Assembly (NCBI RefSeq): GCF_028641065.1
Contig: NC_073387.1
Span: forward strand, 47,430,001 to 47,494,000
Direction: 5' to 3'
DNA length: 64,000 bases
DNA from: Leucoraja erinacea
Taxonomy: Eukaryota
Shown: in pieces, positions 32,047 through 58,637 of the stretch
Layout of the letters: the number at the start of each line of letters is the position of its first letter
How positions within the stretch are numbered: position 1 is the first letter of the stretch
Translations under genes and position numbers: made by a program
Notes under the pieces: model-generated
Told to the model about the DNA's origin: nothing
Databases searched by the model: none
What the model saw: only the letters and a program-made list of their open reading frames with translations

Positions 32047-32074
32047 CTGAAGAAGGGTTTCGGCCCGAAACGTT
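32047..32074 (+). ncRNA. Minimal hammerhead-ribozyme-like core
   Basis: CUGAAGA-A-[GGGU-UUCG-GCCC]-GAAA-CGUU: both hammerhead core boxes, a 4-bp stem II and palindromic ACGU in place of stem III. Stem I is not convincingly formed. Confidence 0.5.
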
Positions 32075-32138
32075 GCCTATTTCCTTCGCTCCATAGATGC
32101 TGCCTCATCCGCTGAGTTTCTCCAGCACTTTTGTCTAC
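32047..32138 (+). mobile_element. ~92-bp Penelope-derived mini-element
   Basis: Flanked by the direct repeat tttcttatc (32039-32047 and 32139-32147); body matches the terminal repeat of the GIY-YIG Penelope fragment at 48880-49010. Confidence 0.75.
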
Positions 32139-32627
32139 TTTCTTATCATTCAACCATTTTGTGAATGACAAAAACAATGCTAAACTTCCGTTTTAAAAAA
32201 TAAATAAATAGCAGAGCTTACTTTAACATTTACCTCTAAAATCAGCAGGGAATGGGTGTGCAATGATTGTACTGACCTGCCTGAATCAAAATTAAACCAA
32301 GGTGCTTGAGCAGACCAGGGATAGTCCCATCGGAGAGTATTTTACTCAGGAACTTGGAAACCCTAAGTTGAGAAATTGGGTAGAGAAACTATACTTTACA
32401 TCATCAAGAGACACAATGACTTCATTGCTAATGGGATCAAGGGGTGAAAGGTTTGGAAAATGACGCAGTGAATGAGCATATTTCCAGTAAGGAAACTATG
32501 GTCTCAAATTTGACTCGAGATATTTTGGGAGAGCAAGAAGGGATCAAGATGATTATTCTCTACCACACTAACACTTATCTCCTAGTTGTTCTCCCTTTCG
32601 TTGTACTTAGCTAGGGAGACACACTTA

Positions 32628-34160
32628 GAGTCATAGAGTGATACAGTGTGGAAACAGACCCTTTGGCCCAACTCGTCCACACCGGCCAATAATGTCCCAG
32701 CTACCCTAGTCCCACTTGACTGCGCTTGGTCCATATCCCCCCCAAACCTGTCCTATCCATGTTTCTGTCCAACTGTTTCTTAAACGATGGGATAGTCGGA
32801 GCCTCAACTACCTCCTCTGGCAGCTTGTCTATACACCCACCACCCTCTGTGTGAAAAGGTTACCCCTCGGATTCCTATTAAATCTTTTCCCCTTTACCTT
32901 GAACCTATGTCCTCTGATCCTCGATTCCCCCACTCTGGGTAAAAGACTGTGCATCCACCCGACCTATTCCTCTCATAATTTTGTACACCTCTAGAAGATC
33001 TCCCCTCATCCTCCTACGCTCCATGGAATAGAGCCGACTCGACCTCTTCCTATAGCTCACGACTCATAGATTTCAACCACAGCTCCCGCCATTTCCTCTC
33101 TAGTTCCCCGCAAAGTGTTTGGATATATGTGATCAGGCCACAGAGCTTTGTCTACCTTTAAACACGACAGTACCTTCAGTACTTCCTCGACAGTAACACG
33201 GACTGCTCTCATGACACTTCCAGTGACTGCTCCAAGTTCCTCCATCCTACTGTCTTCTTGGAGGAGAAATACTCATTGAGGACCTTGCCCATCTCCTGTG
33301 GCTCCACAGAGGTGACTGCTTTAATTCCTGAGTAGTCCCACTCTCACTCCAGTTACCTCTTCCCCCCCTTATGTATTTTTAAAATCTTTTGGGATTGTCT
33401 TTTACGCTACCCTGCCAGAGCTATCTCATGGCCCCTTTTTGCCCTTCTGATCTTTTTTAGTTTGCTCCCAAAACTCTTCCAGAGATGCACTTGATCCCAG
33501 CTGCCTAAACCTGTCCCATGCATCCTTCTTGTTTTTGACTAATGTCTCAATTTCCCTCATCAGCCAAGCTTTCTTATATTTGCCTGGTTTGCTTTCATTC
33601 TAACGGGGACGTACATATCCTGAGCTCTCTTCAGTACACTTTTAAAAACATCCCTCGTGGCCGATGTTCCTTTCCCCTCAAATAACCCGTTCCAGTCAAC
33701 TTGAGCAAGACCTTCTCTCATACCGTCAAAGTTGACCTTACCCCAGTTGAACATTTTAACACGTGGACCCTCTCCGTCCCGATCCATGATTATCTTAAAC
33801 CTAATCAAACTGTGGTCACTTGTCCCAAAAGGCTCCTCCACACACACGTCATTAACTTGCCCTTCCCAATTTCCCAATACTAGATCCAGCATTGCCCTCT
33901 CACGTGTGGGGGCCTCCACATACTGTTTAAGAAAACTCTCCTGAACACATCTAAACCCTTCATGCTATGATTTTCCCAGTCTATATTGGGAAAGTTGAAA
34001 TCCCCTTCCACAACAACCTTATTTGACCTGCAGCTGTCTGCAATCTCACAGCACATTTCAATTCCAATTCCAGTTAACTATTTGGGGATCTGTAGTGCAC
34101 CCCCAACAAGGTGATCATCCCTGCTCCACCAATATAGCCTCACTGGACGAGCTGAGTAGT
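32628..34160 (-). mobile_element. Internally deleted CR1 LINE (endonuclease/RT 5' part joined to the 3' end)
   Basis: ORF 33560-33919 (PTRERAMLDLVL...GTSDHSLI: APE endonuclease C-terminus) and 33057-33245 (KVDKA..PD.IYP..L); 3' tail with ggaaacagaccctttggccca at ~32650. Confidence 0.78.
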
Positions 34161-34289
34161 ATCCTAAACAAAATACATATTCACTTTCCCCCTTCCGCCT
34201 ATCATTTGCTTGGTCACAACTTATTATCAGAGGCAAGACTTCACATCCCAAGCTGGTGTGTTCTAGAGTCTCTGCTGGGAAACACGATG

Positions 34290-34815
34290 CAAGTTCTTAA
34301 GTTCTAGGAGCAGAATTAGGCCATTCAGCCCAAGTTCTTAAGTTCTAGGAGCAGAATTAGGCCATTCAGCCCATTCAACACCATTCAATCATGGCTGATC
34401 TATCTCTCCCTATCAACCCCATTCTCCTGCCTTCTCCCCATAGCCCCTGACACCAGTACTAATCAAGATTCTATCAATCTCCACCGTAAAAATATCCATT
34501 GACAGCCTCCCCACCCTACCGTGGCATTGATTTCCACAGAATCGCCAGCCTCTGATGGAAGAAATTATTCCTCCACGCCTTTCTAAAGGCACATCCTTTT
34601 ATTCTGCGTCACTGTCCTCTGGTCCTAGACTCTCCCACTAGTGGAACCATTCTCTCCACATCCACTCTATGTGGATTATCAGGCCTTTCACCACTCGGTA
34701 AGTTTCAAAGAGGGCTCCCATTGTCCTACTAAACTCCAACAAGTACAGGCCCAGTGGCCCAGTCAAACGCTGATTATATGTTAACCCAATCATGCCTGGG
34801 ATCATTCTCGTAAAA
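34290..34815 (-). mobile_element. CR1 3' fragment with an exact 41-bp tandem duplication of its tail
   Basis: caagttcttaagttctaggagcagaattaggccattcagcc occurs at 34290-34330 and 34331-34371. Confidence 0.72.
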
Positions 34816-35301
34816 GTTTATGTTTCCTTTTATTTTGCAGTCAGCTGTGAGACCTCAGCTGTTGTACTTTCCTGGGTCAGGACTGATTTGGGAAAATGAT
34901 GACCGTGATCATATGGGACCAAATCCCTTTGTTCGAGTATAAATGAAACCCCTTTCATTCAAGACAGTTGGTAACCCGTTGTGCAGCAAGTTAAGTCAAG
35001 TCAACTTTATTTGTCACATACACATACAAGATCTGCAGTGAAATGAAAGTGGCAATGCCTGTGGGATTGTGCAAAACAACAGATCAGAACCAGTATTTAC
35101 ATTAAAAAAAAAGACACAACAGTAACTCTCTCATCCTCTCTGTTTTCGCAGCGTTACAGCGGAGGCCCTTGCCTGACGGTAGCAGCTGGAACCGTCCGTT
35201 GCTGGGGTGGCAGGAAATGGTAAATTAGTCATGTAAATCCAATTAATTTAACTTTGAGATTATTTGAACATATGCATTGATTCTCCCTCAATGCTATCTA
35301 A

Positions 35302-35517
35302 TGCCCCTGTCCCACTTAAGAAACCTGAACGGAAACCTCTGGAGACTTTGCGCCCCACCCAAGGTTTCCGTGCGGTTCCCGGAGGTTGGAGGTGGTTGCA
35401 GGTAGTGGAAGCAGGTAGGAAGACTGAGAAAAACCTCCGGGAACCGCACGGAAACCTTGGGTGGGACACAAAGTCTCCAGAGGTTTCAGTTCAGGTTTCC
35501 TAAGTGGGACAGGGGCA
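35302..35517. mobile_element. Harbinger-type fold-back MITE (216 bp)
   Basis: ~87-bp near-perfect TIRs beginning tgcccctgtcccactta; TAA duplication at 35299-35301 and 35518-35520. Confidence 0.85.
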
Positions 35518-36546
35518 TAAGAGTGCTCAAGACCAAAGGCAGAACAATGAACTTGCAACCCTATGAATCAAAGGATATGGTACACCTTGTGAGACAAATC
35601 TAAATGGGTCCATGGGATTTGGAAACTCGCTCCTAATTTCCATCAAAAAAAAAACAAGGGTCTAGACCCCACCGAACAGTTTTGTCAATTTCCTTTGTCT
35701 TGAGAAAGCTGTGGATGTGAATCAATATTGTTCGATTCTCTACCAGCTGTTTTCAATTTCCAATCGAAAATATTTAAGGAGTATAAATAATGTTTGCATA
35801 TTATGCATTACAAACTTGTAAATAATCATAATTTATATTTCTGAATCTGATATAATGGACCATGTTTTTCTGGAGGAAGTTACTGAGGTTACCCCTGCTC
35901 ACATTTACCACAACAACTTTTCCACATCCAGGAGTCCGGTTTCATGTCTTTGATGGCCTTAGCCAATTTCCGTGGCTATTAACACCAGGAGGGCTTTCAA
36001 TGCAAAATAATCTTGTGCCAACAAAACATTGCAGAAGCCTTTAACAACGGGCAAAATCCGGCCCCTAACTTTGGCATTTATCAAAACAGTTTAAAAAGTT
36101 TATAATTATTTAAAACAAATCCATTAAATAAAATAATTATTATTAAGAAAAAAAAAACCCAAAGTATCATTTAAATAGATGAGCTTATAAAACCAAACAG
36201 GAGCAAGAGAAAGAACCTAAACCACTCAAATCTGCCCACCAATAACTAAGACTCCCCCATGACCCTCTATTCCTTCATCCTTCAAAATATTTATCTATCT
36301 GCATCTTAATTATAACTAATGATTGAGCCTCCATCACCCTCAGAAGTGAATTCCAGAGATTCACTGCCCTGAGATTTTAACGCACACGTTTTCAATAACT
36401 GACCCCTTATTCTGTAGCCTTGGTTGTGACTCTCCCATTTGTGGGAACATCACTGCATCCACCTGTTGAGACATATTACATGTTTGAATAAATCACCTGT
36501 AATTCTGCTATACTTTATGGAATACAGGGGCCCAAACTGTCTCGCC

Positions 36547-37360
36547 CAGGGGTGTCAAACTCATTTTAGGTCACGGGCCGGAATGGGCAAAATGCGCCTT
36601 CATGCGGACTGGATCAGTTGTGCGCGCGCGCTCCCACAGCTTTCGTTGCCTTTGTTTTTTCAACCTGCTCTCATGTGTCTCAGTCTCTGCTATCACTAAA
36701 AAGTGTTTCACTTTACGAATTTCGTTTCATGAAGAAGATTGTCTAGCAAGCATTATTTTTATGTTTGGTATTAACTTATTGTCATCGGCTACAAGAAAGT
36801 TGTGATGAGGGAGAGAAAAAACAAAGCCATTTTGGCTAAGATTGTTTCAGGAGCCACACCCTTTCCATTAATAAACCATTTCAAATCGAACATTAGCAAA
36901 CACAAATGTAGACCTACCAAAACAAATTGTAAATGTGGGCTATACAACTGCACCTAATTTTTATTTGCCTGCTTCCAGCAACAAAGTCAGACAATGGACA
37001 CAGTTAGCATCTGATTTTTATTGGAGTGATCACATTTACAATAATAGACGTCAGAAAATGAATGAATCACAATATTATGACACTAAATATTTCATAATAC
37101 ATTTCGCTTACATGTCGCAGTGCATCGAACAGTGAAACTCATATTTCACTTGCTGCTTCCAGACACCTGACATCTCTTGGTTTTAACCTGCCTGTCAACA
37201 TCAGAGACCAGTTTCTGGGCAGTTGTGATTTTTATAATGTCATTTAGATGTCTGTGTGTCGGCTGCGAGTGCAGTTTGGATTTGTTAATGTTCATTATGG
37301 AGAATGCTTGCTCACAGATATGTTGTCCCGAACACACAAAGGATCTTAGAGGCAAAGTCT
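36547..37360 (-). mobile_element. hAT (Charlie/Buster group) transposon 3' end
   Basis: Terminus caggggtgtcaaactc. ORF 37146-37355 (CEQAFSIMNINKSKLHSQ.T..HL..I.KI.T.......D......KRCQVSG) is a hAT dimerisation-domain tail. Confidence 0.8.
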
Positions 37361-37369
37361 GTCACAAAA

Positions 37370-37925
37370 ACATAGACAATAGGTGCAGGAGTAGGCCATT
37401 CGGCCCTTCGAGCCTGCACCGTCATTCAATATGATCATGGCTGATCATCCAACTCAGTATCCTGTACCTGCCTTCTCTCCATACTCCCTGATCCCTTTAG
37501 CCACAAGGGCCACATCTAACTCCCTCTTAAATATAGCCAATGAACTGGCCTCAACTACATTCTGTGGCCAGAGATTCACCACTCTCTGTGTAAAAATTTT
37601 TTTTCTCATCTCGGTCCTAAAAGATTTCCCCCTTATCCTTAAACTGTGACCCCTTGTTCTGGACTTCCCCAACATCGGGAACAATCTTCCTGCATCTAGC
37701 CTGTCCAACCCCTTAAGAATTTTGTAAGTTTCTATAAGATCCCCCCTCAATCTTCTAGCGAGTACAAGCCAAGTCTATCCAGTCTTTCTTCATATGAAAG
37801 TCCTGACATCCCAGGAATCAGTCTGGTGAACCTTCTCTGTGCTCCCTCTATGGCAAGATTGTCCTTCCTCAGATTAGGAGACCAAAACTGTACGCAATAC
37901 TCCAGGTGTGGTCTCACCAAGACCA
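37370..37925 (-). mobile_element. CR1 3' fragment (young family)
   Basis: ORFs 37454-37750 and 37747-37962. Confidence 0.88.
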
Positions 37926-38412
37926 TGTGCTCCCCTGGCCCAGCTCGATGGAGGAACGGCACTCACGTGAGGGCGATCCGGCTCGGGGCTGGAACGGTGC
38001 TCTGGTGGCTGGGACGGCGTTCTGGCGGCGGTGACCTGAGTCCAGGGTTCAGCCGCGGGCCAGCGGCTGCGCCCGCTGGACTGGAGGGCGGCAGCTTCGA
38101 CCACCCCGGGCCGCGGTGTTTGAGCCGGCCCATTGCGGGGTTCGGTGAGCCGCGGGACTGTTTGTGTCATCGCCCGGTGGGGAATCGTCTCAGCGCAGAA
38201 GGAGAAGAGAAGGGAAGAGACTGCAGCCCTAAGATTTTTGCCTCCACCACAGTGAGGAGGTGCTTGGAGGATACACTGTGGTGGATGTTAATTTGTGTTT
38301 AGTGTTGTTTATTATTGTATGATTGTATGTATGACTGCAGGCACGAAATGTTGTTCAGACCGTAAGGTCTGAATGACAATAAAGGTATTCAATTCAATTC
38401 AATTCAATTCAA
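37926..38412 (+). mobile_element. GC-rich non-coding retroelement with Rex/Babar-like 3' tail
   Basis: GC-rich body, two hairpins, atgacaataaa and a (ttcaa)n tail. Confidence 0.6.
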
Positions 38413-38427
38413 AACTGTTGTGTATAA

Positions 38428-39532
38428 ATGCAGGAGTAGCAAGATGGATTCAACAGTGGCTGAATGGGAGACGCCAGAGGGTAATGGTGGATGGCTGTTT
38501 GTCGGGTTGGAGGCAGGTGACTAGTGGGGTGCCTCAGGGATCTGTGTTGGGTCCTTTGTTGTTTGTCATGTACATCAATGATCTGGATGAAGGTGTGGTA
38601 AATTGGATTAGTAAGTATGCAGATGATACCAAGATAGGGGGTGTTGTGGATAATGAAGAGGATTTCCAAAGTCTACAGAGTGATTTAGGCCATTTGGAAG
38701 AATGGGCTGAAAGATGGCAGATGGAGTTTAATGCTGATAAATGTGAGGTGCTACACCTTGGCAGGACAAATCAAAATAGGACGTACATGGTAAATGGTAG
38801 GGAATTGAAGAATACAGTTGAACAGAGGGATCTGGGAATAACCGTGCATAGTTCCTTGAAGGTGGAATCTCATATAGATAGGGTGGTAAAGAAAGCTTTT
38901 GGTATGCTAGCCTTTATAAATCAGAGCATTGAGTATAGAAGCTGGGATGTAATGTTAAAATTGTACAGGGCATTGGTGAGACTAAATCTGGAGTATGGTG
39001 TACAATTTTGCTCGCCCAATTATAGGAAGGATGTCAACAAAATAGAGAGAGTACAGAGGCGATTTACTAAAATGTTGCCTGGGTTTCAACAACTAAGTTA
39101 CAGAGAAAGGTTGAATAAGTTAGGTCTTTATTCTCTGGAGCGCAGAAGGTTAAGGGAGGACTTGATAGAGGTCTTTAAAATGATGAGATGGATAGACAGA
39201 GTTGATGTGGACCAGCTTTTCCCTTTGAGAATAGGGAAGATTCAAACAAGAGGGCATGACTTCAGAATTATGGGACAGAAGTTTAGGGGTAACATGAGGG
39301 GGAACTTCTTTACTCAGAGAGTGGTAGCGGTGTGGAATGAGCTTCCAGTGGAAGTGGCGGAGGCAGGTTCGATGGTATCATTTAAAAATAAATTGGATAG
39401 GCATAGGGATGAGAAGGGAATGGAGGGTTATGGTATGAGTGCAGGCAGGTGGGACTAAGGGAAAATAATTGTTCGGCACGGACTTGTAGGGCCGAGATGG
39501 CCTGTTTCCGTGCTGTAATTATATGGTTATAT
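38428..39532 (+). mobile_element. CR1 LINE of a second subfamily; open RT C-terminal half
   Basis: ORF 38373-39458 has VPQGSVLGP and KYADDTK. The tail gggccgagatggcctgtttccgtgctgta resembles the V-SINE tails. Confidence 0.9.
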
Positions 39533-40339
39533 GGACCAAATTTCTGCACAATATCCCAGGTGCGGCTTTGCTAATATCTTGCATAACTTTAACACAGCCT
39601 CCCTATTCTTAAATTCCAGCTCCATGCAGCCAAAAGGCCAACATACTGTTTGCCATTTCATTGCTTATTGCACCTGCCTGTCATTTATTGTGATCATGCA
39701 GCAGATTCATTTGCAGTTACTCTCCATTTAGATAATGATCCATCGTTTGGTTCTCGTCAGTGAATGGCCTCTCCCTTCTCCACATTAAACCTCACATACC
39801 AGATCCCACCACCTCCCATAATCCCCAATCACTTTATCCATCTATGTCATTGTTGGCTTATGGGTCATTCACCAGTTTCAACTTTGCACAGGATCTCAGA
39901 GCAGTGTCCCCAGTGTAAATGTTGGGGGAAATCTCATCAATCTGCTCCTCTCCTGCTGGATACCAGCAATGGAGCACAACTTGGAATTTGCTGCAATTTC
40001 AAGCATTAATGTTTTTGCAGAGTGCTATTGCTTGCCCTTGTAACCTTTGTACTTTATATTGCAGTTCCTTGTGCCTACTTTATTGATACACTTTTTTCTT
40101 GATAATTATTGATACATAAAAAGTTTAATGGTTTTTTAAACCTTTACTTCATGAACAATGCATTCTAGGCAGGGATATATCCAGGAGGAATTCCCAAATG
40201 GAACAAAATGCTACTAACTTACCTGACAACCACAATCAGGGGGGGGGGGGGGGGGGGGGGGGGGAGGGTACATTCACAACCACAAATTTTAAACTGGGTA
40301 TGTGTGTGGGGTGGGGAAACTTTTTAAAATATTTCCCCT

Positions 40340-41023
40340 GCATGGAAAACCCGACCTTTTCTCTGTCGGGTCTCCGTTGTCGTTGGGGCCGAGCACCGTG
40401 GAGCGGCCTCCAACCGGAACGACCTGGGGCTCCAGTCGCGGAGCTGCGGACTTACCCACCATCGCGGTGCTGGCCGAGTTCTGAGCGGGAGGAACGGTGG
40501 TGGTGCGCTGCTGCAGCCCGACCCCGGAGATTCGGGGGCTCCAGCCGCCGGCCCGGTGGACGGTGACACTGGGAGCCCGCAGGTCCCTGCTGGGAGACCA
40601 CTTTTCGGGGCTTCCGCAACGGCGACTTCTCCCGTCCAAGTTGCAGGGTTGAGGATGACCTGGAGCGGGGCCTTACATCGCGCGGCGCGGCTTTAAATGG
40701 CCGCGGGACTTGTTAGCGCACATCGGGGGCTCCAACATCAAGACCCGGAGCGCGGCCTCGCATCACCTGGCACGGCTTTAATGGCTGCGGGACTTACTTA
40801 CCATCGCCCGCCGGGGGCTTTGACTCTGACATCGAGAGGAGAATGAGGAGAGCAGGGGAGAGATAAGACTTTGCCTTCCATCACAGTGAGGAGATTCACT
40901 GTGATGGATGTTCGTGTAAAATATGTTGTGTCTTGGTTCTTCTTGTGTGTATGACTGCAGAAACCAAATTTTGTTGAACCTCTGGGTTCAAATGACAACA
41001 AATAAATTGTATTGTATTGTATC
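40340..41023 (+). mobile_element. GC-rich non-coding retroelement related to 37926-38412
   Basis: Shares tttgcct..cacagtgagga, gtatgactgcag, a hairpin before atgacaa, and a (ttgta)n tail. Confidence 0.6.
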
Positions 41024-41127
41024 AAAAATCAATTAAATGTCTGACCGTACAATGAAAAGATCGTTAATAAGCACAGAAAAAGATTGCATGTACATTGACA
41101 ACCAATATAGTTGCAATTATTGATGAA

Positions 41128-41345
41128 ACAAGGAACTGCAGATGCTTATTTACACAAAAGGACACAAAGAGCTGGAGTAACTCAGCAGGTCATGCAGCAT
41201 CTCTGGAGAACATGGGATAGGTGATGTTTCAGGTCTGGACCCTTCTTCAGACTTATGATCAGTCTCAACCTGAAATATCATCCATGCATGTTCTCTAGAG
41301 ATGTTACCAGGCCTGTTGAGTTACTCCAGCATTGTGTGTCCTTTT
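41128..41345. mobile_element. Penelope-derived inverted pair
   Basis: A minus-strand copy (hammerhead-like core at 41223-41250) followed by a plus-strand partial copy, forming a fold-back. Confidence 0.7.
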
Positions 41346-42176
41346 AAATTGCAGTGATTGTTATTTCTAACACTGGCCATGGCCCAACATCTGTATTATT
41401 TGTTACCTTGGACCTCAATCCTTCTATCATTTTATCTTGATTGTGCTTTTCGTGTCTTTCATTTGGTCATCCTGTTGGTGTATTGGTCACTATATCCTGC
41501 CAGACTGGGCAATAGGCTAACAGAACATGTGCAATCCTCTCTGAATCTCGCCATTTCTTATGATGAAACGTCATTGAGTGTAGAGTATAATTTCCTGCTG
41601 TCCTGAAGATGCACATAGTTCACCTGCACTGCTGAAAGTTCACTCTTAGTTAGCGCTGTCCTACCGATTACAGGGGCAGCTTGTTCATGGCACGGAATTA
41701 CCGTTCTAATCATTCACAGATTTATAACTCATAGTGGCAACATGCCAGATGATCATATCACAGCTTTATATGGCAGCTCTGTATTTTGGCCCACTAAAAC
41801 ATTCTGAACAAACCATGATACAAGAGTGTTGTAGATAAGTGTAGATTAGTGGGTGGGCATTATAACATGGGCGGGAGTCATGTTCTCCCTGCATGGAAAT
41901 TGTCTTCTTGATATTTGCAGTGTTAAGCTTTTGCTAAACATTTGAGCAGGGATATTGGGACACAGTAAGATGAGAAGTGGATGAAGAGGGAAGGGGGTAA
42001 CTAAAAGGAACGAAAAGTTAAAGACATTTGTTGAGAATCCTCCATCATCAAATTGGTACTTTGTTTTATTATTCTAATAATCCATCTGAAACTTCTGTAA
42101 ATCAACATCAAGGATTTTGTAGGAAGGAAAGCATCCATACCAAGTAACAACAGTAGGCAGTTAGTGGAAAAGCAAA

Positions 42177-42182
42177 TTTATT
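42177..42182 (-). terminator. Candidate NR3C1 polyadenylation signal
   Basis: Minus strand reads ggataatAATAAAtttgcttttccactaactgcctactgttgttacttgg, with GT-rich sequence downstream. Confidence 0.55.
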
Positions 42183-47391: not shown

Positions 47392-47679
47392 CTAAAAGAG
47401 AAAATAACAAGAATATTAGCAAACCGAAACAAAGCACGCGTAAAGTCAACATTTCTGAAGGGGGATTTAAAATTGTGAAAATGTAAAAAGTATTACACAG
47501 TAGACTTGCTAACAGTGGACATGCCGGATTTCTGAGGTGTTATAGTTTGGAAAAATATCTTGAGATAGAGAACTCCTGGTGAGCAATCTTATTAGATTGA
47601 AAATTACATGGAAACAGGCCCTTTGGCCCACCTGGTCCATGCCGACCATCTATCACACCCTTATAAGTAGTTCTTGTAC

Positions 47680-48570
47680 TTCCGGTGGCACTGGTGCCAG
47701 CAGCCTCCACCTACAGCCCGGTATCTTTTTGTTTTTTTGTTTATTTAGTTATGTTAAAAGTGTATTTTTTTGTGTTTTTTGGTGTTTTTATGTGGGGGAA
47801 GAGGGCACGGTGCGGGGGATACCGTACTTCAGCCGCTTCCTGGTGAGGACGCGACTATTATTCGAGTCGCGTCCTCCCCCCCCCCCCCCCACAGCGGCCT
47901 ACCTACCTGGATTGGCGCGGCCTTTCCTGCCGGGATCGACCGGAGCTCCAGCAGCGGCGGGACAGCGCTGGAACATCGCGGGGCTGGCGATGCCTTACCG
48001 GGGGTCCGGAGTGCTGGACCTGCTGCACCAACATCATGGAGCTGCGGTTTGCAGAGCTCCCAACGCGGGCGGCGCTGATGGACAGCGCGGGGTCCTGTGA
48101 CTCTGCCCAGCTCAACCTGCGGACTCGGGAGCTGCAGACTCCGGCAGCGGGAGGCGGCTGATCAGGAGGTCCGGGCCGCTGAGGAGGAGGATGCTCACCG
48201 TCGGGGTTCGGCGTCAGCGTTCCACCAGCCCGGCGTGAGGGCCTGAACATCGGGCCACCCGGGGCGGCGACTGCGGGTGCTCGGAAGGCCCCGACCACGG
48301 ATGGACACGGAGGGGAGGCTGGCTGGACTATGGTGCCTTCCTCACCTGGGTGCCATTTATGTTATGTTGTGTTGTGGACTTTCTGTGTTTGTGCTTTTGT
48401 TAAATTTTTAATTCAATTTCAATTTTATTTTTAATATGTTTTATTATTTATTTATTATTTATTTTTATTATTTTTCTTGTGATTTTTTTTAAACGATACT
48501 GCCTGTACGGGAAATTCATTTCGTTGTCTCAAAGTGAGGCAATGACAATAAAATTTGAATACAAGAATAC
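47680..48570 (+). mobile_element. GC-rich non-coding retroelement with Rex/Babar-like tail (NR3C1 last intron)
   Basis: CpG-rich body; ends catttcgttgtctcaaagtgaggcaatgacaataaa. Confidence 0.55.
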
Positions 48571-48877
48571 ATAAAAACAACTGTAAAAAATGTATATGAA
48601 GTGCTGGCTCTGACAGTAAATTATTACATGAACAAAATCTTATTTATATTCGCCACCCTGATCTTAGTCAAATTTGCCATTTTGCTGGAAAAAGGAAAGT
48701 TTCACAACACAACCTAAAATTCACTATTCCTTTGTTTAATCTGTTTCCAAGGTTTGTTGATAAAACTCAATAATTGCACTATTGTCAACTCATTTAATGT
48801 TCACATCTATAGATTATAATAATTTGTATTTTCAACCCTCATCTGTTAAACTGAGTGAACGTTAACATTTTAATATT

Positions 48878-49920
48878 TAATTTAAGAACTGCAGATACTG
48901 GAAAAATCGAAGGCAGACAAAAATGTCGGAGGAACTCAGCGGGTAAAGCAGCATCTATGGTGAGAAGGAATAGGTGAACTTTCGGGTCGAGACCCTTCTT
49001 CTGACTGATGTTGGGGGGGGGGGGAGAGACGGGAAAAAGAAAGGAAGAGGCGGAGACAGTATGTTTGTGGGAGAACTGGGAAGGGGAGGGGAAGGAGGGA
49101 GAAAGCAAGGACAACCTGAAATTAGAGAAGTCAATGGTCAAACCGCTGGGGTGTATGGGAATATGAGGTGCTGTTCCTCCAATTTGCGCTGGCCTCACTC
49201 TGGCAATGGAGGAGGCCCAGGACTGAAAGGTCAGATTTGGAATGGGAGGGAGAGTTGAAGTGCTGAGCCACCGGGAGATCAGGTTGGTTAGTGCGAACTG
49301 AGCAGAGGTGTTGGGCAAAACGATCGCCAAGCCTACGCTTGGTCTCGCCGATGTAGAGAAGTTGACACTTGGAACAGCGGATGCAGTAGATAAGGTTGGA
49401 CGAGGTGCAGGATCCTTGGAAACACTGCTTGGATCCTTGGATGGAGTCGAGGACAGAGGTAAAGCGACAAGTGTAGCATTTCCTGCGGTTGACAATAGAC
49501 AATAGGTGCAGGAGTAGGCCATTTGGCCCTTTGAGCCAGCACTGCCATTCAATGTGATCATGGTTGATCATCCCCAATCAGTACCCCGTTCCTGCCTTCT
49601 CCCCATATCCCTTAACTCCGCTATTTTTAAGAGCCCTATCTAGCTCTCCCTTGAAAGCATCCAGAGAACCTGCCTCCACCGTCCTCTGAGGCAGAGAATT
49701 CCACAGACTCACCATTCTCTGTGAGAAAAAGTGTTTACTCGTCTCCGTTCTAAATGGCTTACTCCTTATTCTTAAACTGTGGCCCCTGGTTCTGGACTCC
49801 CCCAACATCGGGAACATGGGGAAAGGTTGCAAGGGGAAGTACCCGGGAGGGGATGGTTTGGGTGGGAAGGTGCAAATTGGCCAGGGAGTTATGGAGGGAA
49901 TGGTCTAATAGTATTTTATG
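48878..49920 (-). mobile_element. Penelope-like retroelement 3' part (GIY-YIG endonuclease and terminal repeat), interrupted by CR1
   Basis: ORF 49131-49577 contains C..C...SSNLIYCIRC..C.LLYIGET.RRL.DRF..H...VA.HFN (GIY-YIG with Zn-binding Cys/His). The terminal repeat is at 48880-49010. Confidence 0.85.
49492..49818 (-). mobile_element. CR1 3' tail nested in the Penelope ORF
   Basis: ORF 49578-49832; ggttg is duplicated on both sides, and removing the insertion restores PCNRRKCYTC. Confidence 0.85.
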
Positions 49921-50267
49921 AAGGAAAATGGCAGTGTTTAGCAGGCACATTAACCAGTCAATGCCAGCATTGGTGATTTTAAGATTTTAGTCTCTACACA
50001 GTGATATAAAGTAGTAAACTTTATTCAACGTTTTGATGACAGGATAAGGAACAAAGTGAATACTTATTTTCTGTGTAGCTCTGAGGCCAAAATAGTAAAA
50101 CTTTATTTTATGAAACAGGGAACAATGCAGCAGAGAAACAGGCCCTTTGCCTAAGATGTCTGTGCCAACTGTGATGCCAATTTAAATTAATTTCATCAGA
50201 ATACACCTGGTACTTCATAAATGCTGCTATTGTCTCTGTTTCCACCACCCATGCACATACCATTCTA

Positions 50268-50399
50268 CAGTGCCCTCCATAATGTTTGGGACAAAGACCC
50301 ATCATTTTTTATTTGCCTCTGTACTCCATAATTTGAGATTTGTAATAGTAAAAACCACATGTGGTTAAAGTGCACATTGTCAGATATTAATAAAGGCCA
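50268..50399 (+). mobile_element. Solo Tc1 TIR fragment (same family as 22893-24974)
   Basis: ta-cagtgccctccataatgtttgggacaaagacccatc...aataaaggcca. Confidence 0.85.
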
Positions 50400-50551
50400 G
50401 TTAATAAAGATCACCACCACTTCCAAGTTCCCCTCCAAGTTGCTCATCATCTGGACCCGGACATTTACTGTGGTGGTGGCAGATTACCAGGCGTTCTCAA
50501 GTATGGACAATGAACACTGTAGTTGTTCAGGTCCTGAAAAATATTACACTA

Positions 50552-52302
50552 CAGGTGCACAACCTTTTATCCGAAGATCCAAATAACGAAAACCTCCGAA
50601 TAGCGACATTTTTTCAGTCCTTGAAGAAAGGTCCTCGAAAACGTTCACCGAGGGCGGCCCGCAGGGGTCCTCGAAGAAAGGGGAACTAAAGCCCCATTCA
50701 TAAAAGAGACGGTGAGGGTATATTGCGCGGGAGGCTTAATAATTGACAATCTGCTGCTGCCTGCCCGCTGAGTTAAACAGTTCCCACGGTAGACTCACGA
50801 TACACAGTGTATCGTGAGTCTTGCGTGGGAACGTTTTAACTCAGCGGGCAGGCAGCAGCAAATTGTCGCTCCCTTCAGTTTCATCCCACCTACACCCCTC
50901 TGCTTTCCGGCTATGTGTGTGACCCCTTCCCTCCCCTCTCCAGCTCCCCACGCATTGCACCGGCGTGGGGGCTTTGCACTGTCTTCACGTTGTAGCCAGT
51001 GCCAGTCACTGGAGACGTCAGGACCAACGGGACACCGACCCCCAGGCCCACTACAAGCACGGAGATCCCAGAGACCCATAGCCAGCAGCAGCCCAGCCCC
51101 GTTCCAACTCCAAAGGAAAACTGCAAACTGGCCCTAGACGTCAGGACCAAAATTACTGTTATTGAGCCCCCAGGCCCACTGCAAGCACTACCCAGAGACC
51201 CACAGCCAATTTAGCCCAGTCCCCGTTCCAATTCCAGAGTACAATTGCGCTCTCCGCCGTCCCCGTAGGGTAGAAGCTGATGGCTCGGGCTGTTACGTTC
51301 AAGCCACCCCCCTGTACAGGAGCTGAGACTGGGAACTGTGGGGTTGTTTGCAGTTGCAGAGTGAGGGGGCAAGGGCGGTACAGTTCCCAGTCTCAGCTCC
51401 ATTCCAGGGGGGTGACCGGAGACGTCAGGACCAACGGGACACCGACTGCAAGCACGGAGATCGCAGAGATTCACAGCCAGCAGCAACTCTAGCCCAGCCC
51501 CGCTCCAACTCCAGAGGAACCCGGGTTGCGGATGAGGGGGTGCAGCTCGGGCTGTGGGTGGAACTGCCGCAAGGCTGTAGCGGCGCATCGGGGAGCGGGT
51601 TCCTGTTGGTCCTGACGTCTCCGGCCACCCCCCTGGACAGGAGCTGAGAGACGTCAGGACCACCAGAAGCCGCTCCCCGATGCGCCGCATACAGCGACAA
51701 GTGGCAGTTCGCCCACAGCCCGAGCTGCGCCCCCCTCATCGGGACACCGACCCCCGTGCCCACTGCAAGCACGGAGATCCCAGAGACTCACAGCCAGCAA
51801 TTTCTAGCCCAGCCCCGCTCCAACTCCAGAGAGAACCCGGGTTGCGGATGAGGGGGCGCAGCTCTGGCTGTGGGCGAACTGCCACTTGTCGCCGTAGCGG
51901 CCCATCGGGGAGCGGATTCCTCTGGAGTTGGAGGGACAGGGAGACACAGCGGCTTTTGAGAATGGTGGGCAATCACTTCCAAAGTTCTGCCCACACAGTC
52001 AGTACACCTCTCCTGCACTTGTCTCCCGCACTAAGATCATCTCGCAGAGAATGATCCCAGCCTAACCCTCCCTATTCTCTCCTATTCTGCAAGAAAAAAT
52101 ACATTGAAGACTCAAACTCGCGATCGAGTAACTGCCGGGATCGAGGCGCAAACTCGCGACCTTGCGGATACGAGCCGAGCACTCTACCACTGAGCCAGCC
52201 GTTAAAATCTACGCTAAAAATCTTCCATTCCGAAAGCCGAAAAATTCTGAATTACGAAAAGTGTCTGGTCCCAAGGCTTTCGGATAAAAGGTTGTGCACC
52301 TG
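50552..52302. mobile_element. Non-autonomous Tc1/mariner-superfamily (pogo/Tigger-like) element, 1.75 kb
   Basis: Perfect 24-bp TIRs caggtgcacaaccttttatccgaa; TA duplication at 50550-50551 and 52303-52304; GC-rich internal repeats; no transposase. Confidence 0.85.
52131..52205 (-). pseudogene. tRNA-derived sequence (Thr-CGT-like arm) inside the DNA transposon
   Basis: Minus strand ggctggctcagtggtagagtgctcggctCGTatccgcaaggtcgcgagtt...tcgatcccggc: A box, anticodon arm and a disrupted T arm. Confidence 0.55.
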
Positions 52303-52418
52303 TATTACATTTCCAATTTGCCTCTGCAGGAAATGTTTACCAACCAATAATTTAATTGATGTTAGCATGTCTGCTGGAATACTTGAAACATTTACTTTTT
52401 CCCCAGAATTTTACTTAC

Positions 52419-52576
52419 ATCATGCATTGAATCCAAAAGTTTAGTCAGCTGATAAAAACGATGCCAGTTTTGGCTCGAGTTTCCCTCTTTCTTCACTATG
52501 GCTTTCCCCAGCTCTTTTATGTACGAGGTTCGAATCTCATCAAACGTAGCCTGGCTCTTCAAGCCATCTGTTGGTA
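52419..52576 (-). CDS. NR3C1: NR3C1 LBD exon (exon 8 equivalent) (I)[52 protein letters not shown]
   Basis: Acceptor cctctgcag, donor gtaagt, 158 nt; GR-type [32 protein letters not shown]. Confidence 0.97.
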
Positions 52577-53768
52577 CTGCAGAGGAAGAAAAACACCTTT
52601 TGTGATTTATGCAGTGAGAGTAAGCAAAAGCCATAACATAGCAATAGATGATATGGGATATAAATGGGAAATAAACGGTGGGCCAAAGGACCTGCTTCCA
52701 TGGTGCATCCATCCACCATCAATCAGTATTAGCCGAGTCCAAGTGCTGGAGTGTGGCTCCAATCTATGTCCTATCGTAGACCCAAAAATTACTGTTATTG
52801 AGCCTAATTATGAATTGACTAAACAGACAAATTTAATTTAGTACATTGATGTGCACAAACTTTTAAGTACAATTGCTTTAAGGTCTTGATTGTACACCAA
52901 CTGATTATTTATTTTCAGGATATGGGCACATTGCTAGCAACATTATCAAATATTGCCCATCATAGGTGCCCTCAAGGTGGTGAGTCACCTTCAATAATTG
53001 CTGCCGTCAAAGGCATTTAATGGATCCAACTTGAGAAAGCTAGTTATTAGGATAAATTGCCCAGGGCACTCATTAAGTAGTTTGGTGCTCAATCAAGCAT
53101 GACAGGAACGACATGAGGATTTTTGTTTGGTTTGTGGGTAAATCTAATGGCAAGATCACCGTTGGAATTTTAAAGAGGAAGTAGATCAGGCAATTTATGC
53201 AAGATCAGGAATTTGAGAGATGTGAAGAATTGGCACAGAAGAGGCAGTGTTCAGGAGCAGATGAGTATGATCAGGATGATGGCAGGATAGGCTGAAGGGG
53301 CCAAATGGCATACTCCTGCTATTTTCTTATGTTCTTGTATTCACTTTATAATTTTTCTATAATGGCATTACAAAATTAGAAATCAGTTCAGTTCATTGTC
53401 ACGTGTACTGAGGTACAGTGAAAAGCTTTTTGTTGTGTGCTAACCAGACAGCAGAAAAACAATACATGATTACAGTCAATCCATTTACTGTGTACAGATA
53501 CATGATAAGGGAAAACGTTTAGTGTAAGGTAAAGCCAGTAAAGTCCGGTCAAGGCTAGTCCGAGGGACATCAATCAAAGAGGTAGAAATCGTCAAATAAT
53601 ATTCAGATAATCATGACACAATGTACTGATATAAGAAACTGGCCACATTGCATTAACCCTTAATAGTTTATATATATTTATAACTGCACTGAGACTAAAA
53701 TCTACAAATTAACTGAAGGATTCACATGATGTGCCCAATCTAATAATATTACCAAGATGAATACCTAC

Positions 53769-53899
53769 TTGTGCCAAGCAGCAGTAATGCCTTCATGCAT
53801 AGATATTCTTCATAGGCAACCTTAAGGTTTCTGAAATCTACTGCAATGTTGCCCATTCCTTTGCACAAACTGTACATAGTTGACTGCTGCATCCGCTCC
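53769..53899 (-). CDS. NR3C1: NR3C1 LBD exon (exon 7 equivalent) (E)ERMQQSTMYSLCKGMGNIAVDFRNLKVAYEEYLCMKALLLLGT
   Basis: Acceptor ttaattaaag, donor gtaggt, 131 nt; phases match both neighbouring exons. Confidence 0.95.
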
Positions 53900-54019
53900 C
53901 TTTAATTAAAAAAGAAAATGTCAACATGTGCATCGTTCTTGTTATATTCCTTTACATTTGCTATTGAAAGAATTGCAAATTAAGTTTTTTACCCTGAACA
54001 CTTTTTTATATTCAATATT

Positions 54020-54250
54020 TAGACAATAGATAATAGATGTTGGGGTAGGCCATTCGGCCCTTCGAGCCAGCACCGCCATTCAATGTGATCATGGCTGATC
54101 ATCCCCAATCAGTGCCCCGTTCCTGCTTTCTCCCCATATCCCTTGACTCCGCTTTTTTTAAGAGCCCTATCTAGCTCTCTCTTGAAAGCATCCAGAGAAC
54201 CTGCCTCCACCGCCCTCTGAGGCAGAGAATTCCACAGACTCGCAACTCTG
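54020..54250 (-). mobile_element. CR1 3' tail
   Basis: Near-identical to 49492-49720; (tagacaa)n tail. Confidence 0.82.
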
Positions 54251-54939
54251 AGTTCATGTTCTTTTAAGCAATGATAATAGTATGTTTGCTGCTAAACCCC
54301 TCGTGCCAAAAACATGCTGTTTTCCATTGTCATTTGTCTGGCATTAAGGCATCAATTTAAGAACAATGGATTTCAGATACTGTCAAGTTGGGCTTGAGGT
54401 TATTTAGGAATTATCTCAGGCAGCTATCCAGGAAGTACAACACAACTTTCAACTTGCAGTTTAAATATTTTACTGAGTGTGAAATGAACACTGAAACATG
54501 CACATTGAGATTAAAAAATCTTAAATATCATACTAGTCTTGCAATTAAGGGTCTCAACCCGAAACACCACCAAATCCTTCTCTCCAGAGATGCTGCTTGT
54601 CCCGCTGAGTTACTCCAGCATTTTATGCCTATCTTCTTGTAATTAAGATGTCACTTAACTATAAAGATCTTAATGATTTTTATGCCCAAGGAGAAATTAC
54701 AATGTCTCTTCAAATACTGTTGTTTATCAGAGATACTGCGCCTTGTGAATGACTAAATATTGGCAGCATTGTGCAAGCTTAGTCAAGATCATCAAAAATT
54801 AATCTACTGATGATTCATTGTAATTGCATGAAGCACTGTCCTTAATCATACCATTCAATTCATTAACAGTGAACAGAAACATCAAGCAAAATAACAAAGT
54901 GCTAGATGAACAGCAGATTACACAGCACCTATGGTGGAA

Positions 54940-55150
54940 TAAACAAGGAACTGCAGATGCCGATTTACAAAAAAGACAAAAAGTGCTGGAGTAATTCAGC
55001 GAGTCGGGCAGCATCTCTGGATAACATAGATAGATGATATTTTGGGTCAGGTCTCTTCAGTCTAAAGAAGGGCCCCAACACAAAATGTCAGCCATCCATG
55101 TTCTCCGTTAGATGCTGCCTAACCCACTGAAATACTCCAGCACTGTGGTT
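54940..55150. mobile_element. Penelope-derived inverted pair (older copy)
   Basis: aaggaactgcagatgc...gtgctggagtaa...gcagcatc followed by gatgctgcc...tactccagcac. Confidence 0.65.
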
Positions 55151-57238
55151 TACTTAGAATCTATGGAGGGAATGGACAGACCAAGGTTGAGACTGGGACC
55201 CTTTCTTCAGACAAAGACTAGGGTAAGAAAGCTGAAGAGAAGTAGGAACGAGGCAAAGCCTGACAAGTAATTGGTTAACAGTAGAGATAGTGACAAAGGT
55301 GCAAAGGAGACAAAATTGTTTCAGGTAAGGAAAGAGAAGAAGGGGTGAAAACAAACTTTCCCATGGCCAGAACTAACCAGGGCTATCATTAGAGGCCATC
55401 AGCACCTTTATCAGCCCATCGAGAAGCAATGATAAAGCAAGAACAACTCTGAGATATCTGTGTCTTCATCAGTCTCTCTGCTGATTGGCACAAAAATTGA
55501 TGAGGACACAGGATTTTGGTGCAATTACTTAAAAGGGAAAAATAGTATTGTGAGAATTATGCAAGTGCTTATTAACACTGCAACATTCTGGAACTTCCAC
55601 AAGAGGATGTGGTGAAATTATGTGTCACCATTCAATAATAATATCTCTTTTGTGCCCTAAATATTTGCTACCAATCTGTGGCGTTCTGATGATGGCATCA
55701 TATGATAGACTGCAAGCTTGCATCTCTTTTGCTTTACAATGGGGCAAGGTGGATCCCGTCCAAAATTGAATTTCATCAGATGTTAGAAATTAATAGGAAA
55801 ACATTAGATCCCCTGTTCCGTATATTTACCACCTTTCAGATGAAGTTAGCCAGTTTAGATTGATCTGGGTGTAAGTAAAAATCCATATTAAAACTACTCT
55901 ATGGTTTATATTTTTTGTAATTATGCATTCAAGCAGTTCTGTTATACCAGGGTGCACGTGCATAACTTCCCTGTTAATCTCAACCAAATGTTTTTAAAAT
56001 TCTATCTCTAGAGCTTACTGAGCTGGTTTATCTCATTGTTTATTAAAGTGATCTTGTGGTTTTCCACTCCCTTGCAAAAATTCCCTTATCTTTATCACAG
56101 AGCTGTACAGTTTGGAGCACAGCAAGTTACTACCAAGTAACCTCCAAACTGGAACATGACCCACAATGATTGGAGCCACCTTCTTTTCCAATATCCTTCC
56201 TAGCAGGTAACACAACTGTATGTTTTGATAAGGGCTTTTGACCTGAAACGTAAACTGTTTTTCTTTCCGCCTGACCTGCTGGGTATTGAATAAAACGCTT
56301 TCTGTTTTTGTTTCAGATTTCAGTAAAGCACATGGTTTCCCCAATCATGAAATTCTTCTGAAATACCACACAAGCTTTGTTTCTTTTCTCCCGTCTGCAC
56401 AGATCGCCTCCTCCAAAATAAGCATTTTGACAAGCCTAACAAAGGATAAATATCTGTGTGTTCTTGTGTTACATCCCAATTGTATTTCCCTTATCCTGCA
56501 CGTTATCGATCATATCAATCTTGTTCTGATCCTTCATCTTTGTACATGGACCATGGAGTTGGCGGAAAAAGATTAAATTACTGACATGGATTGAGGGATT
56601 AAATGCTTCATTTCCAGGTTTGGCAGACAGTGACACATGGCGAACCATAAGTATCTGTGCTTGAGCCTGAGGTATACACAATCTGTATACTCAAGTAACA
56701 GGCAATTGCACTACAAGGTAATCAAAGATATGGGGAGAGCACAAGGGAAGTGTTTTAGAGACAAGGGTGTGATTGGGTTAGCCATGATAACATTGAATAG
56801 CGGAATTGGCTTATGAGATGATGACACACAGTACTGGAGTAACTCAGCGGGTCAGGCAGCATTTCTGGAGAAATAGAATGTGACGTTTTGGGTCAGAACC
56901 CTTCTTCAGACTGATTCAGATGATTGCATGTCCTTTTCCTGTTTCTTTTGCAGATTCACGTTACTTGGATCCCATTTCTCCTTTTCCTTTTAAACAAAAT
57001 GCCACTCTACTAGTAAAAGTTAGAGTACTACCACAACACTGGGATGTACCGTCAGCTATCCATTGCTGTCACTTCAAAGGGTGAAACCGATTGCCCAGCT
57101 CAGGTTCACAGCAATATTATGTTTTAATTAAAATAACTATTACCATATCATCATTTTGTTCTTCTTTCGAAGGCAAGTTTTTGGGATTATGAATATTTTT
57201 TAAGAATCACCCATGCCAACTTGTGATGCAGTACTTAC

Positions 57239-57383
57239 TCATTGAAGATGAGATCTGGTGCAAAGAAGAGCATGCTACTATTGGAGTGTTTATAAGATCT
57301 CCAAGCAAGACTGAAAACCATAAGGGACATCCAAGAATATTGCAGTAACATCATTTGGTCATCCAGGTGTAAGGATCTGAATC
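57239..57383 (-). CDS. NR3C1: NR3C1 LBD exon (exon 6 equivalent) (G)[47 protein letters not shown](E)
   Basis: Acceptor ctttctgcag, donor gtaagt, 145 nt. LHLDDQM is GR-type (MR has LPLEDQI). Confidence 0.96.
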
Positions 57384-57520
57384 CTGCAGAAAGAAACAAA
57401 TATTCTACATGATTCCTCTTGAATATCAGTAAACATCATCGGACACTGTAGCACTGGATATCTTAGGAATGATCTTCTAACAAAAAGTTTAATTTCTCAA
57501 ACAAACATTAAAATATTGCT

Positions 57521-57698
57521 TAAGAAGGAACTGCAGATGCTGGAGAATCGAAGGTACACAAAAAAGCTGGAGAAACTCAGCGGGTGCAGCAGCATCTATG
57601 GAGCAGACTGAAGAAGGGTTTCGGCCTGAAACGTTGCCTATTTCCTTCGCTCCATAGATGCTGCTGCACCCGCTAGAGTTTCTCCAGCTTTTTTGTGT
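57521..57698. mobile_element. Young Penelope-derived fold-back insertion with a hammerhead-like core in the loop
   Basis: 16-bp duplication acattaaaatattgct (57505-57520 and 57699-57714); ~51-bp inverted arms (57554-57604 and 57649-57700); ctgaagaagggtttcggcctgaaacgtt at 57608-57635. Confidence 0.8.
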
Positions 57699-58637
57699 AC
57701 ATTAAAATATTGCTACTCCCACAAGGTTAGAACTCGATGGACACCATCTTAAAACCTTGCGTCATACCTTCAGCTTAGATTCCACTGGATGGACTAACTT
57801 ATTCCTGACAGGCGCTCCCAAACAAAGATGGTCCAAGACAGTAGAACTGTCATTAATAAAAACATGGCAATTCCCTGCACGCAGTTCAGAAAATGTTAAC
57901 ACAATAAACTAGAGCAATAGTGGCCCGAGAACCACTCCAACAATATCCGAGTCTTGTTGCCCGAGTACAGCTCCAACAATCAACAGATCAACACAATCCT
58001 TAACAAAAACAACTTGTTCGGCAACACATTTAGCAGCCGCAACATTAATTCCCTTTGCCACTGGTGCACCATTGTTGCAGTAAACACCATCGTCAAAATG
58101 GATTGCAAATACTCAGCTAGGCTACTCTGACACACAACTTCCACCACCAAAGATAAATCTAAAGAGGATCTTGGCATGAACCCTTTGAGGTGTATAATGA
58201 AGCTGGTCCATTTCAGGAACAGTGCTCCCACAATTTTCTATAATACTCTTCGTCATGGTCTTTTTTAGATATTAAGAGGCACAGCGCAGATGCTGCCCGT
58301 CCAGCTGAGCCGCTGTAGCACCGCGTGCGCAGCCCCGTTGATGGCCGGCGCTTGGCCCCCGCCGGGGCGGTTCGGCTAGAGAAACTGAATGGGTGACGTT
58401 TCGGTTCCGGAGATGTTGCCTGGCCTGCCGCAGCGTCCCGTGTGTGTCCCCTCCGGTGGCCGGTGCTCGGCCCCCGTTGCCACCAAACCTCTCCGTCTGA
58501 GTCACAACACCCTCCACCGAGCGGGCAAACTGACGACCACTGGACAGGGAGAGAGATGCGGCCTGCAGTCCCCGGGAGCCGGAATAGAGCTGGCACCGAA
58601 CCCCCCCTCCCGGCGAACCCGGTCCGACACCTCAGGC

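Follow-up and report, generated by a model that had tools for sequence, protein, structure and literature searches.

The DNA analysed here, referred to as the window, comprises 64,000 nucleotides of Leucoraja erinacea (NCBI RefSeq assembly GCF_028641065.1, contig NC_073387.1, positions 47,430,001 to 47,494,000 of the forward strand) and holds a truncated Penelope-like element (PLE) together with a dispersed family of short repeats (90-220 bases) bearing the core of a minimal hammerhead ribozyme. With approximate bounds, the family amounts to ~22 arms at 15 loci, or ~2.8 kb and 4.4% of the window, a count that includes two weak arms placed by eye at 56227 (E 0.002) and 9152 (E 0.53). These numbers support the high copy number proposed in a preliminary description of this DNA, which had viewed the repeats as a non-autonomous, retrozyme-like system mobilized by a Penelope reverse transcriptase (RT).

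The PLE is a 5'-truncated copy at 48886..49490 (−) that consists of the end of an open reading frame (ORF), a pyrimidine-rich 3' untranslated region (UTR), a hammerhead core, and a leader of ~90 nt plus tail. The broken ORF end (~49110-49490, −) carries a CxxC linker remnant and a GIY-YIG domain, and is separated from the repeat by ~105 nt of the pyrimidine-rich UTR. The fragment matches PF01541 (E 3e-5, 24.7 bits against a cut-off of 22.6), and the best of 12 longer protein matches share 79% (Leucoraja), 73% (Rhinoraja), 63% (Mobula), and 58-59% (Chiloscyllium) identity with it. The domain match and these identities confirm that the repeat forms the terminus of a GIY-YIG Penelope fragment, as had been proposed. 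The fragment opens with CxxC at its broken start, and its relatives show the full CX4CX2C linker. In the available parts of the literature, to which all comparisons with published elements in this text are limited, a CX2-5CxxC linker between RT and endonuclease marks the Neptune and Nematis PLEs (PMC8557442). Judged by its sequence, the parent is an endonuclease-positive PLE, likely of the Neptune type. No PLE RT fragment was found in the window; an RT is present in the relatives P0004 and P0007 and in the metagenome locus L002.

The exact core pattern of the repeat occurs at 0 loci in viral contigs, at 0 in prokaryote genomes, and at 2 loci in metagenomes (L001 and L002), both of which are PLEs of other animals. 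L002 (1-3018) encodes an apparently intact RT-GIY-YIG frame of 961 codons (17-2902), which begins right behind the same minimal core and stem II at the 5' start of the element, with a helix I of 1 bp, although the locus was retrieved by the core pattern itself. Its first Met lies ~185 nt past C3, the base numbered +1 in all copies described here (cleavage is predicted after +28). When the leader beyond the cut site was used as a profile, neither L001 nor L002 gave a match (best E 0.57), and the likeness to these loci is therefore limited to the core. L002 could serve in vitro studies as a natural, putatively full-length element. L001 has the core at 548-575 (−), inverted upstream of the ORF, and the bases upstream of this core also form TCAG-T-CTGA, with a helix I of 3 bp. 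A short ATG frame in the leader of the skate repeat was considered as an ORF start but gained no support: its five peptides reached a best E of 0.14 among 246 proteins, and the first Met of L002, which lies further down, also disfavours it.

A profile built from the seven copies of the preliminary description yields 34 matches at E<=10 in the window, 20 of them with E<1e-4 (including the 7 seeds), against 6 matches with a best E of 1.8 in the reversed window. With up to three mismatches, the core pattern is matched 6 times against 0.06 expected, and none of 100 shuffles reaches 6. The loose combination of CUGANGA and GAAA alone is found 7 times against 4.4 expected, that is, not above chance. 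All seven stem-II strings were found where they had been placed. The pattern said to unite them (CUGAAGA, A, stem II, GAAA, and CGUY) is complete in two of the seven copies, 32047 and 57608, and does not hold for the other five. The copy at 41250 has CAUC and a broken stem III, both CUGA and stem III are broken at 49003, G12 has become A at 56909 and 22295, and the copy at 54549 is without the CUGAAGA box because its insertion begins inside the core. Rfam models gave 13 matches in the window at E<=5, none of them a hammerhead or other ribozyme; the miRNA-family matches coincide with palindromes.

The identification of the motif as a minimal hammerhead ribozyme (min-HHR) of the Penelope type nevertheless agrees with the published consensus of CUGANGAH, a G10.1-C11.1 pair, GAAAN, and NUH, whose conserved traits include an extra base between positions 9 and 10.1 and a palindromic 15.2-16.2 (Cervera & De la Pena 2014, PMC4209133). 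The additional A after CUGANGA, which had been noted as a caveat, is thus a known feature of these ribozymes. In an alignment of 15 of the 22 arms (seven were left out, mostly as too decayed or short), the majority base fits the CUGANGAH/GAAAN-NUH consensus at every core column. Published min-HHR motifs are mostly single, probably reside in truncated PLEs, and include opposite-strand pairs; they showed no cleavage as monomers and low cleavage as dimers (PMC4209133). The skate copies share with them the consensus boxes, the extra base, the palindromic stem III, the single dispersed motifs, and the opposite-strand pairs, while their stem II of 4 bp and helix I of 2 bp are near the lower limit of published lengths. 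Short helices have precedents in Acropora (stem II of 4 bp) and in D. virilis, Culex, and Oikopleura (helix I of 2 bp), and no chondrichthyan row appears in the available part of the published alignment (PMC4209133). The caveat that stem I pairs for only ~2 bp is correct for the three copies that retain native upstream sequence, a third pair being formed in 1 of 10, and such a length has the precedents just named. In their present flanks, the two whole-core copies have a helix I of 1 bp (32047) and 0 bp (57608).

Most copies have decayed. The core boxes are intact in 3 of the 15 aligned arms, two of which also have the palindromic ACGU. This stem III is present in 3 of 5 copies examined, its C being kept in 7/9 and its G in 6/9; G12, which sits in a CpG, survives in five of nine arms. 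Across these nine arms, agreement with the majority base reaches 82 of 90 cells at core positions outside CpGs, compared with 408 of 526 downstream (Fisher p 0.003, column permutation p 0.01). The excess conservation expected of a ribozyme core over its flanks is therefore found, albeit weakly, as the arms are related and were mostly found by the motif. Loop II is least conserved (22/36 cells). In stem II, 79% of cells are paired and changes are mostly one-sided; its covariation score is no higher than that of shuffles (185/500), and slid controls reach 21-44% against 69%. The hammerhead is not the preferred fold in predictions for monomer and dimer, whose models leave the core unscored, and the core can also pair with a pyrimidine run at +35..+43. 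This pattern is read as selection on parent elements followed by decay of the copies.

The copies end at two shared 3' positions, near +92 and +120, whose difference of ~30 nt is referred to as the tail. Among 21 printed arm ends, 10 were scored by eye as tailed and 11 as untailed. A further copy of CCAGCA, the motif found at the short end, lies in the tail, which can also base-pair with +48..+56. Both 3' ends lie ~9-18 nt past a CCAGCA, which suggests that a single recognition motif may be used in two registers. The 5' ends form a series that starts at −490 in the PLE fragment (49490), whose core at 49003-48976 (−) is mutated in U4 and stem III. It continues at ~−246 in an arm at 55156..55455 (−) with a longer 3' UTR and a shortened 3' end, at −77 in an untailed copy at 6413..6574 (+) with ~77 nt of 3' UTR upstream of a decayed core, and at −37 in an untailed copy at 4353..4510 (−), whose rearranged core is preceded by ~37 nt of 3' UTR. 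The arm at 55156..55455 shares −77..−11 with the copy at 6413..6574 and possibly extends to the ORF end at ~−246, its far boundary depending on a single 33-nt local match.

Closer to the core, 5' ends lie at −6 (56915), ~0 (32047 and 22295), and +6..+9 (54549), and ~9 window arms in all have 5' ends between −8 and +9. No literature description of PLE 5' ends clustering at the hammerhead was found, a search for truncation near the ribozyme leading to the Adineta paper alone. The tiny monomers belong to this group. The untailed monomer at 32047..32138 (+) has an intact core, starts at C3, and is flanked by a 9-bp target site duplication (TSD; 32039-32047 / 32139-32147). A second, at 54549..54634 (+), has a 13-bp TSD with one mismatch (54537-54549 / 54635-54647), and a third, at 56823..56915 (−), starts 6 nt 5' of C3 and has a probable 9-bp TSD with one mismatch (56814/56916). 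The tailed monomer at 22170..22295 (−), in which C3 has become U, has no clear TSD. Together with the 16-bp TSD at 57505-57520 / 57699-57714, the duplication at 32039/32139 had been reported before, and both were confirmed. In 296 random intervals, TSDs as long arise with a chance of ~3% (32039/32139), ~1% (57505/57699), ~1% (54537/54635), and ~9% (56814/56916). Of the 13 loci tested for a TSD, the other 9 show none beyond chance.

Six loci are head-to-head pairs, among them the insertion at 57521..57698 within the 16-bp TSD, whose palindromic nature had been overlooked. Its left arm (57521-57604, −) is tailed and without a core, its right arm (57604-57698, +) is untailed with the core intact, and the whole folds with a z of −14, while eight single arms, at z −1.7 to +1.3, are no more stable than their shuffles. 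The pair at 41126..41345 is centred ~6-7 nt 5' of C3 and combines a tailed left arm (−), whose core at 41250 has the broken stem III, with an untailed right arm (+) that has a deletion in the core. In the pair at 54941..55147, centred 1 nt 5' of C3, the left arm is tailed, the right arm is untailed, both cores are decayed, and the arm at 55156..55455 stands beside it as a third. Three older pairs lie at 156..345, 9108..9265, and 63725..63905, each with a right arm scored by eye as tailed, and the second with the weak left arm mentioned above. Exactly one arm is tailed in all six pairs (probability 0.016 if arms were independent at 50%), although three of these six calls rest on old degenerate copies. 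The three well-kept pairs have their centres at −1, −1, and ~−6, in or beside TCAG-T-CTGA, a quasi-palindrome that runs into the beginning of the core; beyond this short sequence the palindromes share no junction. Two further copies complete the family, an old tailed monomer of another subfamily at 56223..56335 (+; E 0.002) and an old fragment of the downstream leader at 30559..30627 (−; E 4e-6).

These features bear on the retrozyme-like system that had been proposed. Non-LTR retrozymes form head-to-tail arrays of mostly 150-450 bp units, mostly with canonical hammerheads, and give rise to circular RNA (PMC7229834; bioRxiv 10.64898/2026.07.22.740005). Under this explanation, tandem units would self-cleave, circularize, and retro-insert, and the window would hold the resulting monomers. 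Retrozymes with a mean unit of 363 bp, dispersed monomers, and a proposed pLTR (pseudo-long terminal repeat) origin are reported from one chondrichthyan genome (bioRxiv 10.64898/2026.07.22.740005), TSDs of >4 bp would fit (PMC7229834), and the skate copies resemble animal retrozymes in having a type I hammerhead, in being non-coding, PLE-related, and dispersed as monomers, and in their long TSDs. However, no head-to-tail unit exists in the window, where the 28 TRF rows all lie outside the copies and neighbouring arms are inverted, and no copy end coincides with the predicted cleavage site. The hammerhead is not of the canonical type I, with loop contacts and a helix I of ~6 bp, either: helix I measures 0-2 bp, and no Rfam hammerhead model matches. 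No position with many read starts or ends was seen in a poly(A) run of a relative, a weak test, given that 6% of the run was read and that such a library would lose unit-length linear or circular RNAs. The missing tandem units, the absence of ends at the cleavage site, and the lack of a shared palindrome junction, together with a 5'-truncation series that uses the two 3' ends of the parent and with the inverted pairs, speak against a separate retrozyme-like system, and tandem self-cleaving units as the source of these copies are hardly probable.

The repeats are instead, with good confidence, the pLTRs of the endonuclease-positive, likely Neptune-type PLE. Its own protein likely produced the tiny copies as 5'-truncated and inverted insertions that are now dead, with no separate family involved. 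The earlier idea that they are independent insertions, likely made by a PLE RT, is upheld. Endonuclease-positive PLEs are known to insert with 5' truncation, an adjacent inverted truncated copy, a one-end tail of 30-40 bp, palindromic junctions, TSDs of 8-10 bp, and solo pLTRs (PMC8557442, PMC3846280, PMC8969392). The window copies show the truncation series, inverted pairs with a palindromic junction, one-arm tails, TSDs, and solo pLTRs expected from this background; they differ in that most are reduced to the pLTR alone and that their 5' ends gather at the ribozyme edge.

A comparable element is the Poseidon PAc of Anolis. Its protein cleaves AT-rich DNA on both strands and, with uncut RNA as template, begins cDNA synthesis at two internal sites that define the tail; the PAc hammerhead requires protein for cleavage, and insertion in vitro proceeds without it (Frangieh et al. 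2024, PMC11167929). The skate repeats are similar in having a hammerhead ~100-125 nt upstream of two 3' ends, in copies of uncut RNA, in AT-rich targets, and, as far as the available text of that study allows comparison, in the absence of RNA-seq ends at the cut site. It is from this similar geometry that the tiny copies are taken as products of the parent's own protein. The two systems belong to different clades, the CxxC linker of the skate fragment pointing to Neptune or Nematis, and the first Met of L002 lies ~185 nt past C3 and not at stem II as in PAc.

By analogy with the anole element in vitro (PMC11167929), the PLE RT-GIY-YIG protein would nick AT-rich DNA and initiate cDNA synthesis at one of two internal RNA sites, a choice that would account for the optional tail. 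The template would be RNA not cut by the ribozyme, because copies contain the core as well as the sequence on either side of the cleavage site. Copying would mostly end at the 5' edge of the ribozyme, probably owing to a transcript start there or else to stalling of the RT, and a start at the first pLTR of the transcript would lead to run-off after ~95 or 125 nt. Microhomology-driven joining may be an alternative reason for the stop. Two such cDNA ends, or a single one folding back, could then join via TCAG-T-CTGA to give hairpin insertions. The hammerhead itself would act weakly, as a dimer or with the help of protein, only in the parent transcript, and the inserted copies would decay. With regard to a start at this edge, TCAGTCT fits the initiator consensus YYANWYY, to which 1.2% of positions conform by chance. 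Promoters have been described in pLTRs, which also work in trans (PMC2377424, PMC3846280).

The short arms of the asymmetric palindromes raise the question of whether some copies derive from RNA that the ribozyme had cut, in which case they would be genomic fossils of in vivo cleavage. Six of the seven listed joints within the terminal unit link the 5' edge of the core to a point 3-13 nt 3' of the predicted cut, and the short arms in the window begin ~5-20 nt past the cut in four pairs. Yet these joints come from a listing of 12 of 114 rows and are given without their type, and no class starting exactly at the cut appears among the loose-end rows listed. At 57604 the centre has remained symmetric, and a subsequent loss of 38 nt explains this pair, while pairing of the core with the pyrimidine run at +35..+43 would offer microhomology without any cleavage. 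We regard an origin of the short arms from cut RNA as distinctly unlikely.

Sequence reads provide a view of the family beyond the window. Twenty of the 24 runs listed, from at least 10 organisms, contain part of the stretch; the best covers 0.46 of its words, and the runs therefore come from relatives and not from this genome. The run search listed no RNA run with the stretch, which has no bearing on expression, and X15 is probably DNA. Four runs were aligned at 80% likeness, including one raw poly(A) run, the one read to 6%, in which 8,022 reads were placed. In all four, a leading class of loose ends departs from the element at the CUGA box and continues into AT-rich sequence of mixed kinds (522 reads; 377, 362, and 52 contigs), with an agreement of 0.35-0.37 beyond that point. 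A second class runs on into the purine-rich UTR (371, 252, 233, and 10). In RNA reads of a relative, U4 is present in 91-94%, compared with 94-97% at three non-core positions, and the stem-III CpG in 71-84%.

The sharp boundary at the CUGA box might also reflect a 3' splice site, with tiny copies arising from spliced RNA. A pyrimidine tract and CAG stand directly upstream (49004-49060), with two bases between this CAG and CUGA, and helix I is also where an intron of D. virilis ends (PMC4209133). Spliced cDNAs would share an upstream exon, however, whereas the agreement of the loose ends is low (0.35), and many of them retain the AG itself. Splicing at this boundary appears very improbable.

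The same boundary would be expected of a distinct non-autonomous 'PLE-SINE' (SINE, short interspersed element) of ~95 or 125 nt, with its own start 5' of the core, transcribed and re-copied in trans by the PLE RT. Besides the clustered 5' ends, seen in ~9 window arms and in the four sequencing runs, the poly(A) RNA run has a mean depth of 3,754 over the terminal unit (terminal 100 nt) against 684 over the ORF end, a 5.5-fold ratio that is inflated by the several subfamilies sharing the terminal unit. The promoters of pLTRs mentioned above and the putatively non-autonomous PLEs described in Chlamydomonas (PMC8557442) also favour this explanation. Against it, the terminal unit is found with 37, 77, ~246, and 490 nt of the parent upstream, and each of ~five sequence subfamilies yields tiny copies. 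The anole RNA must reach +172 of the ORF, past the RT start at +111-118 (PMC11167929); by analogy, a cDNA copy would likely lack part of the RNA that the protein needs. RNA reads over the terminal unit are unstranded (47:53, compared with 35:65 over the ORF end), as passengers in host transcripts would be. That skates and rays carry such a self-propagating, non-autonomous Penelope derivative of 95-125 nt, whose RNA would start at an initiator overlapping the 5' strand of the hammerhead, is unlikely, if the foremost of the alternatives to keep in mind. If true, its start site, ribozyme core, and RT landing stem would constitute the smallest mobile unit, and the fixed 5' edge and the post-cut short arms would be a genomic record of PLE RNA starts and in vivo cleavage. 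In run X24, the strand-biased ORF-end reads (49080-49390; 35:65 over 49168-49365) would be antisense to the ORF if the library is of the usual stranded type.

Several points weigh against dead insertions of the parent as the whole explanation. Copies 32047 and 57608 share 91% identity, and therefore a young tiny-copy subfamily exists, of which the window shows no parent. A non-autonomous master, too, would be expected to produce many tiny copies and a sharp boundary on the 5' side. The better-kept core fits selection on source elements, yet is inflated by the motif-based finding of arms. A mutation private to the reference, at 49002, makes the pile-up of loose ends at 49001 sharper, and the loose-end results come from a listing of 24 of 2,347 rows. 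The mechanism, moreover, is borrowed by analogy from an element of the Poseidon clade.

No description of this family in sharks or skates was found in the literature; Repbase and Dfam were outside the search, and the family may already be catalogued there. The function of the PLE hammerhead is called unclear (PMC8557442). The present copies add a batoid PLE family to those with this known motif and mode of insertion, and are relevant to repeat annotation, as such stubs mimic miniature inverted-repeat transposable elements (MITEs) and miRNA hairpins. If very many copies were compared, the distribution of their 5' ends and palindrome junctions about the core could reveal the start of PLE transcripts and any use of cut RNA as template.

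Other features of the window are mostly repeats. A repeat at 49491-49816, similar to the 3' part of a LINE (long interspersed element) family, abuts the 5' end of the PLE fragment. LINE RT fragments occur at 958-2822, 11010-12342, and 38373-39455, and the frame 958-2418 is open for 487 codons. Fragments of a Tc1/mariner-type transposase (DDE_3, HTH) at 23285-24709 (−) lie between repeat copies 22891-23077 and 24789-24976. ALKBH8_N (PF09004) is matched in two frames, 15008-15349 (−; E 8e-18) and 28564-28995 (−; E 2e-10), and the dispersal of two copies suggests a retroelement-associated match and not a host exon. No clear host exon was found among the 43 of 59 long window frames scanned. A palindrome at 50745-50867 has 61-nt arms that are 92% complementary around a 1-nt loop; ~21 nt of each arm resemble the PLE leader at +52..+72, tail-to-tail, with an E of 0.15 that may be chance. 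A MITE-like inverted repeat at 35297-35522 has 91-nt arms (95% complementary) and a 44-nt spacer. GC-rich nested inverted repeats at 51305-51921 (arms of 23-54 nt, 89-96%) give weak, sub-threshold miRNA-like Rfam matches, and a short inverted-repeat element at 3171-3410 has perfect 25-nt arms and an inner 24-nt hairpin.

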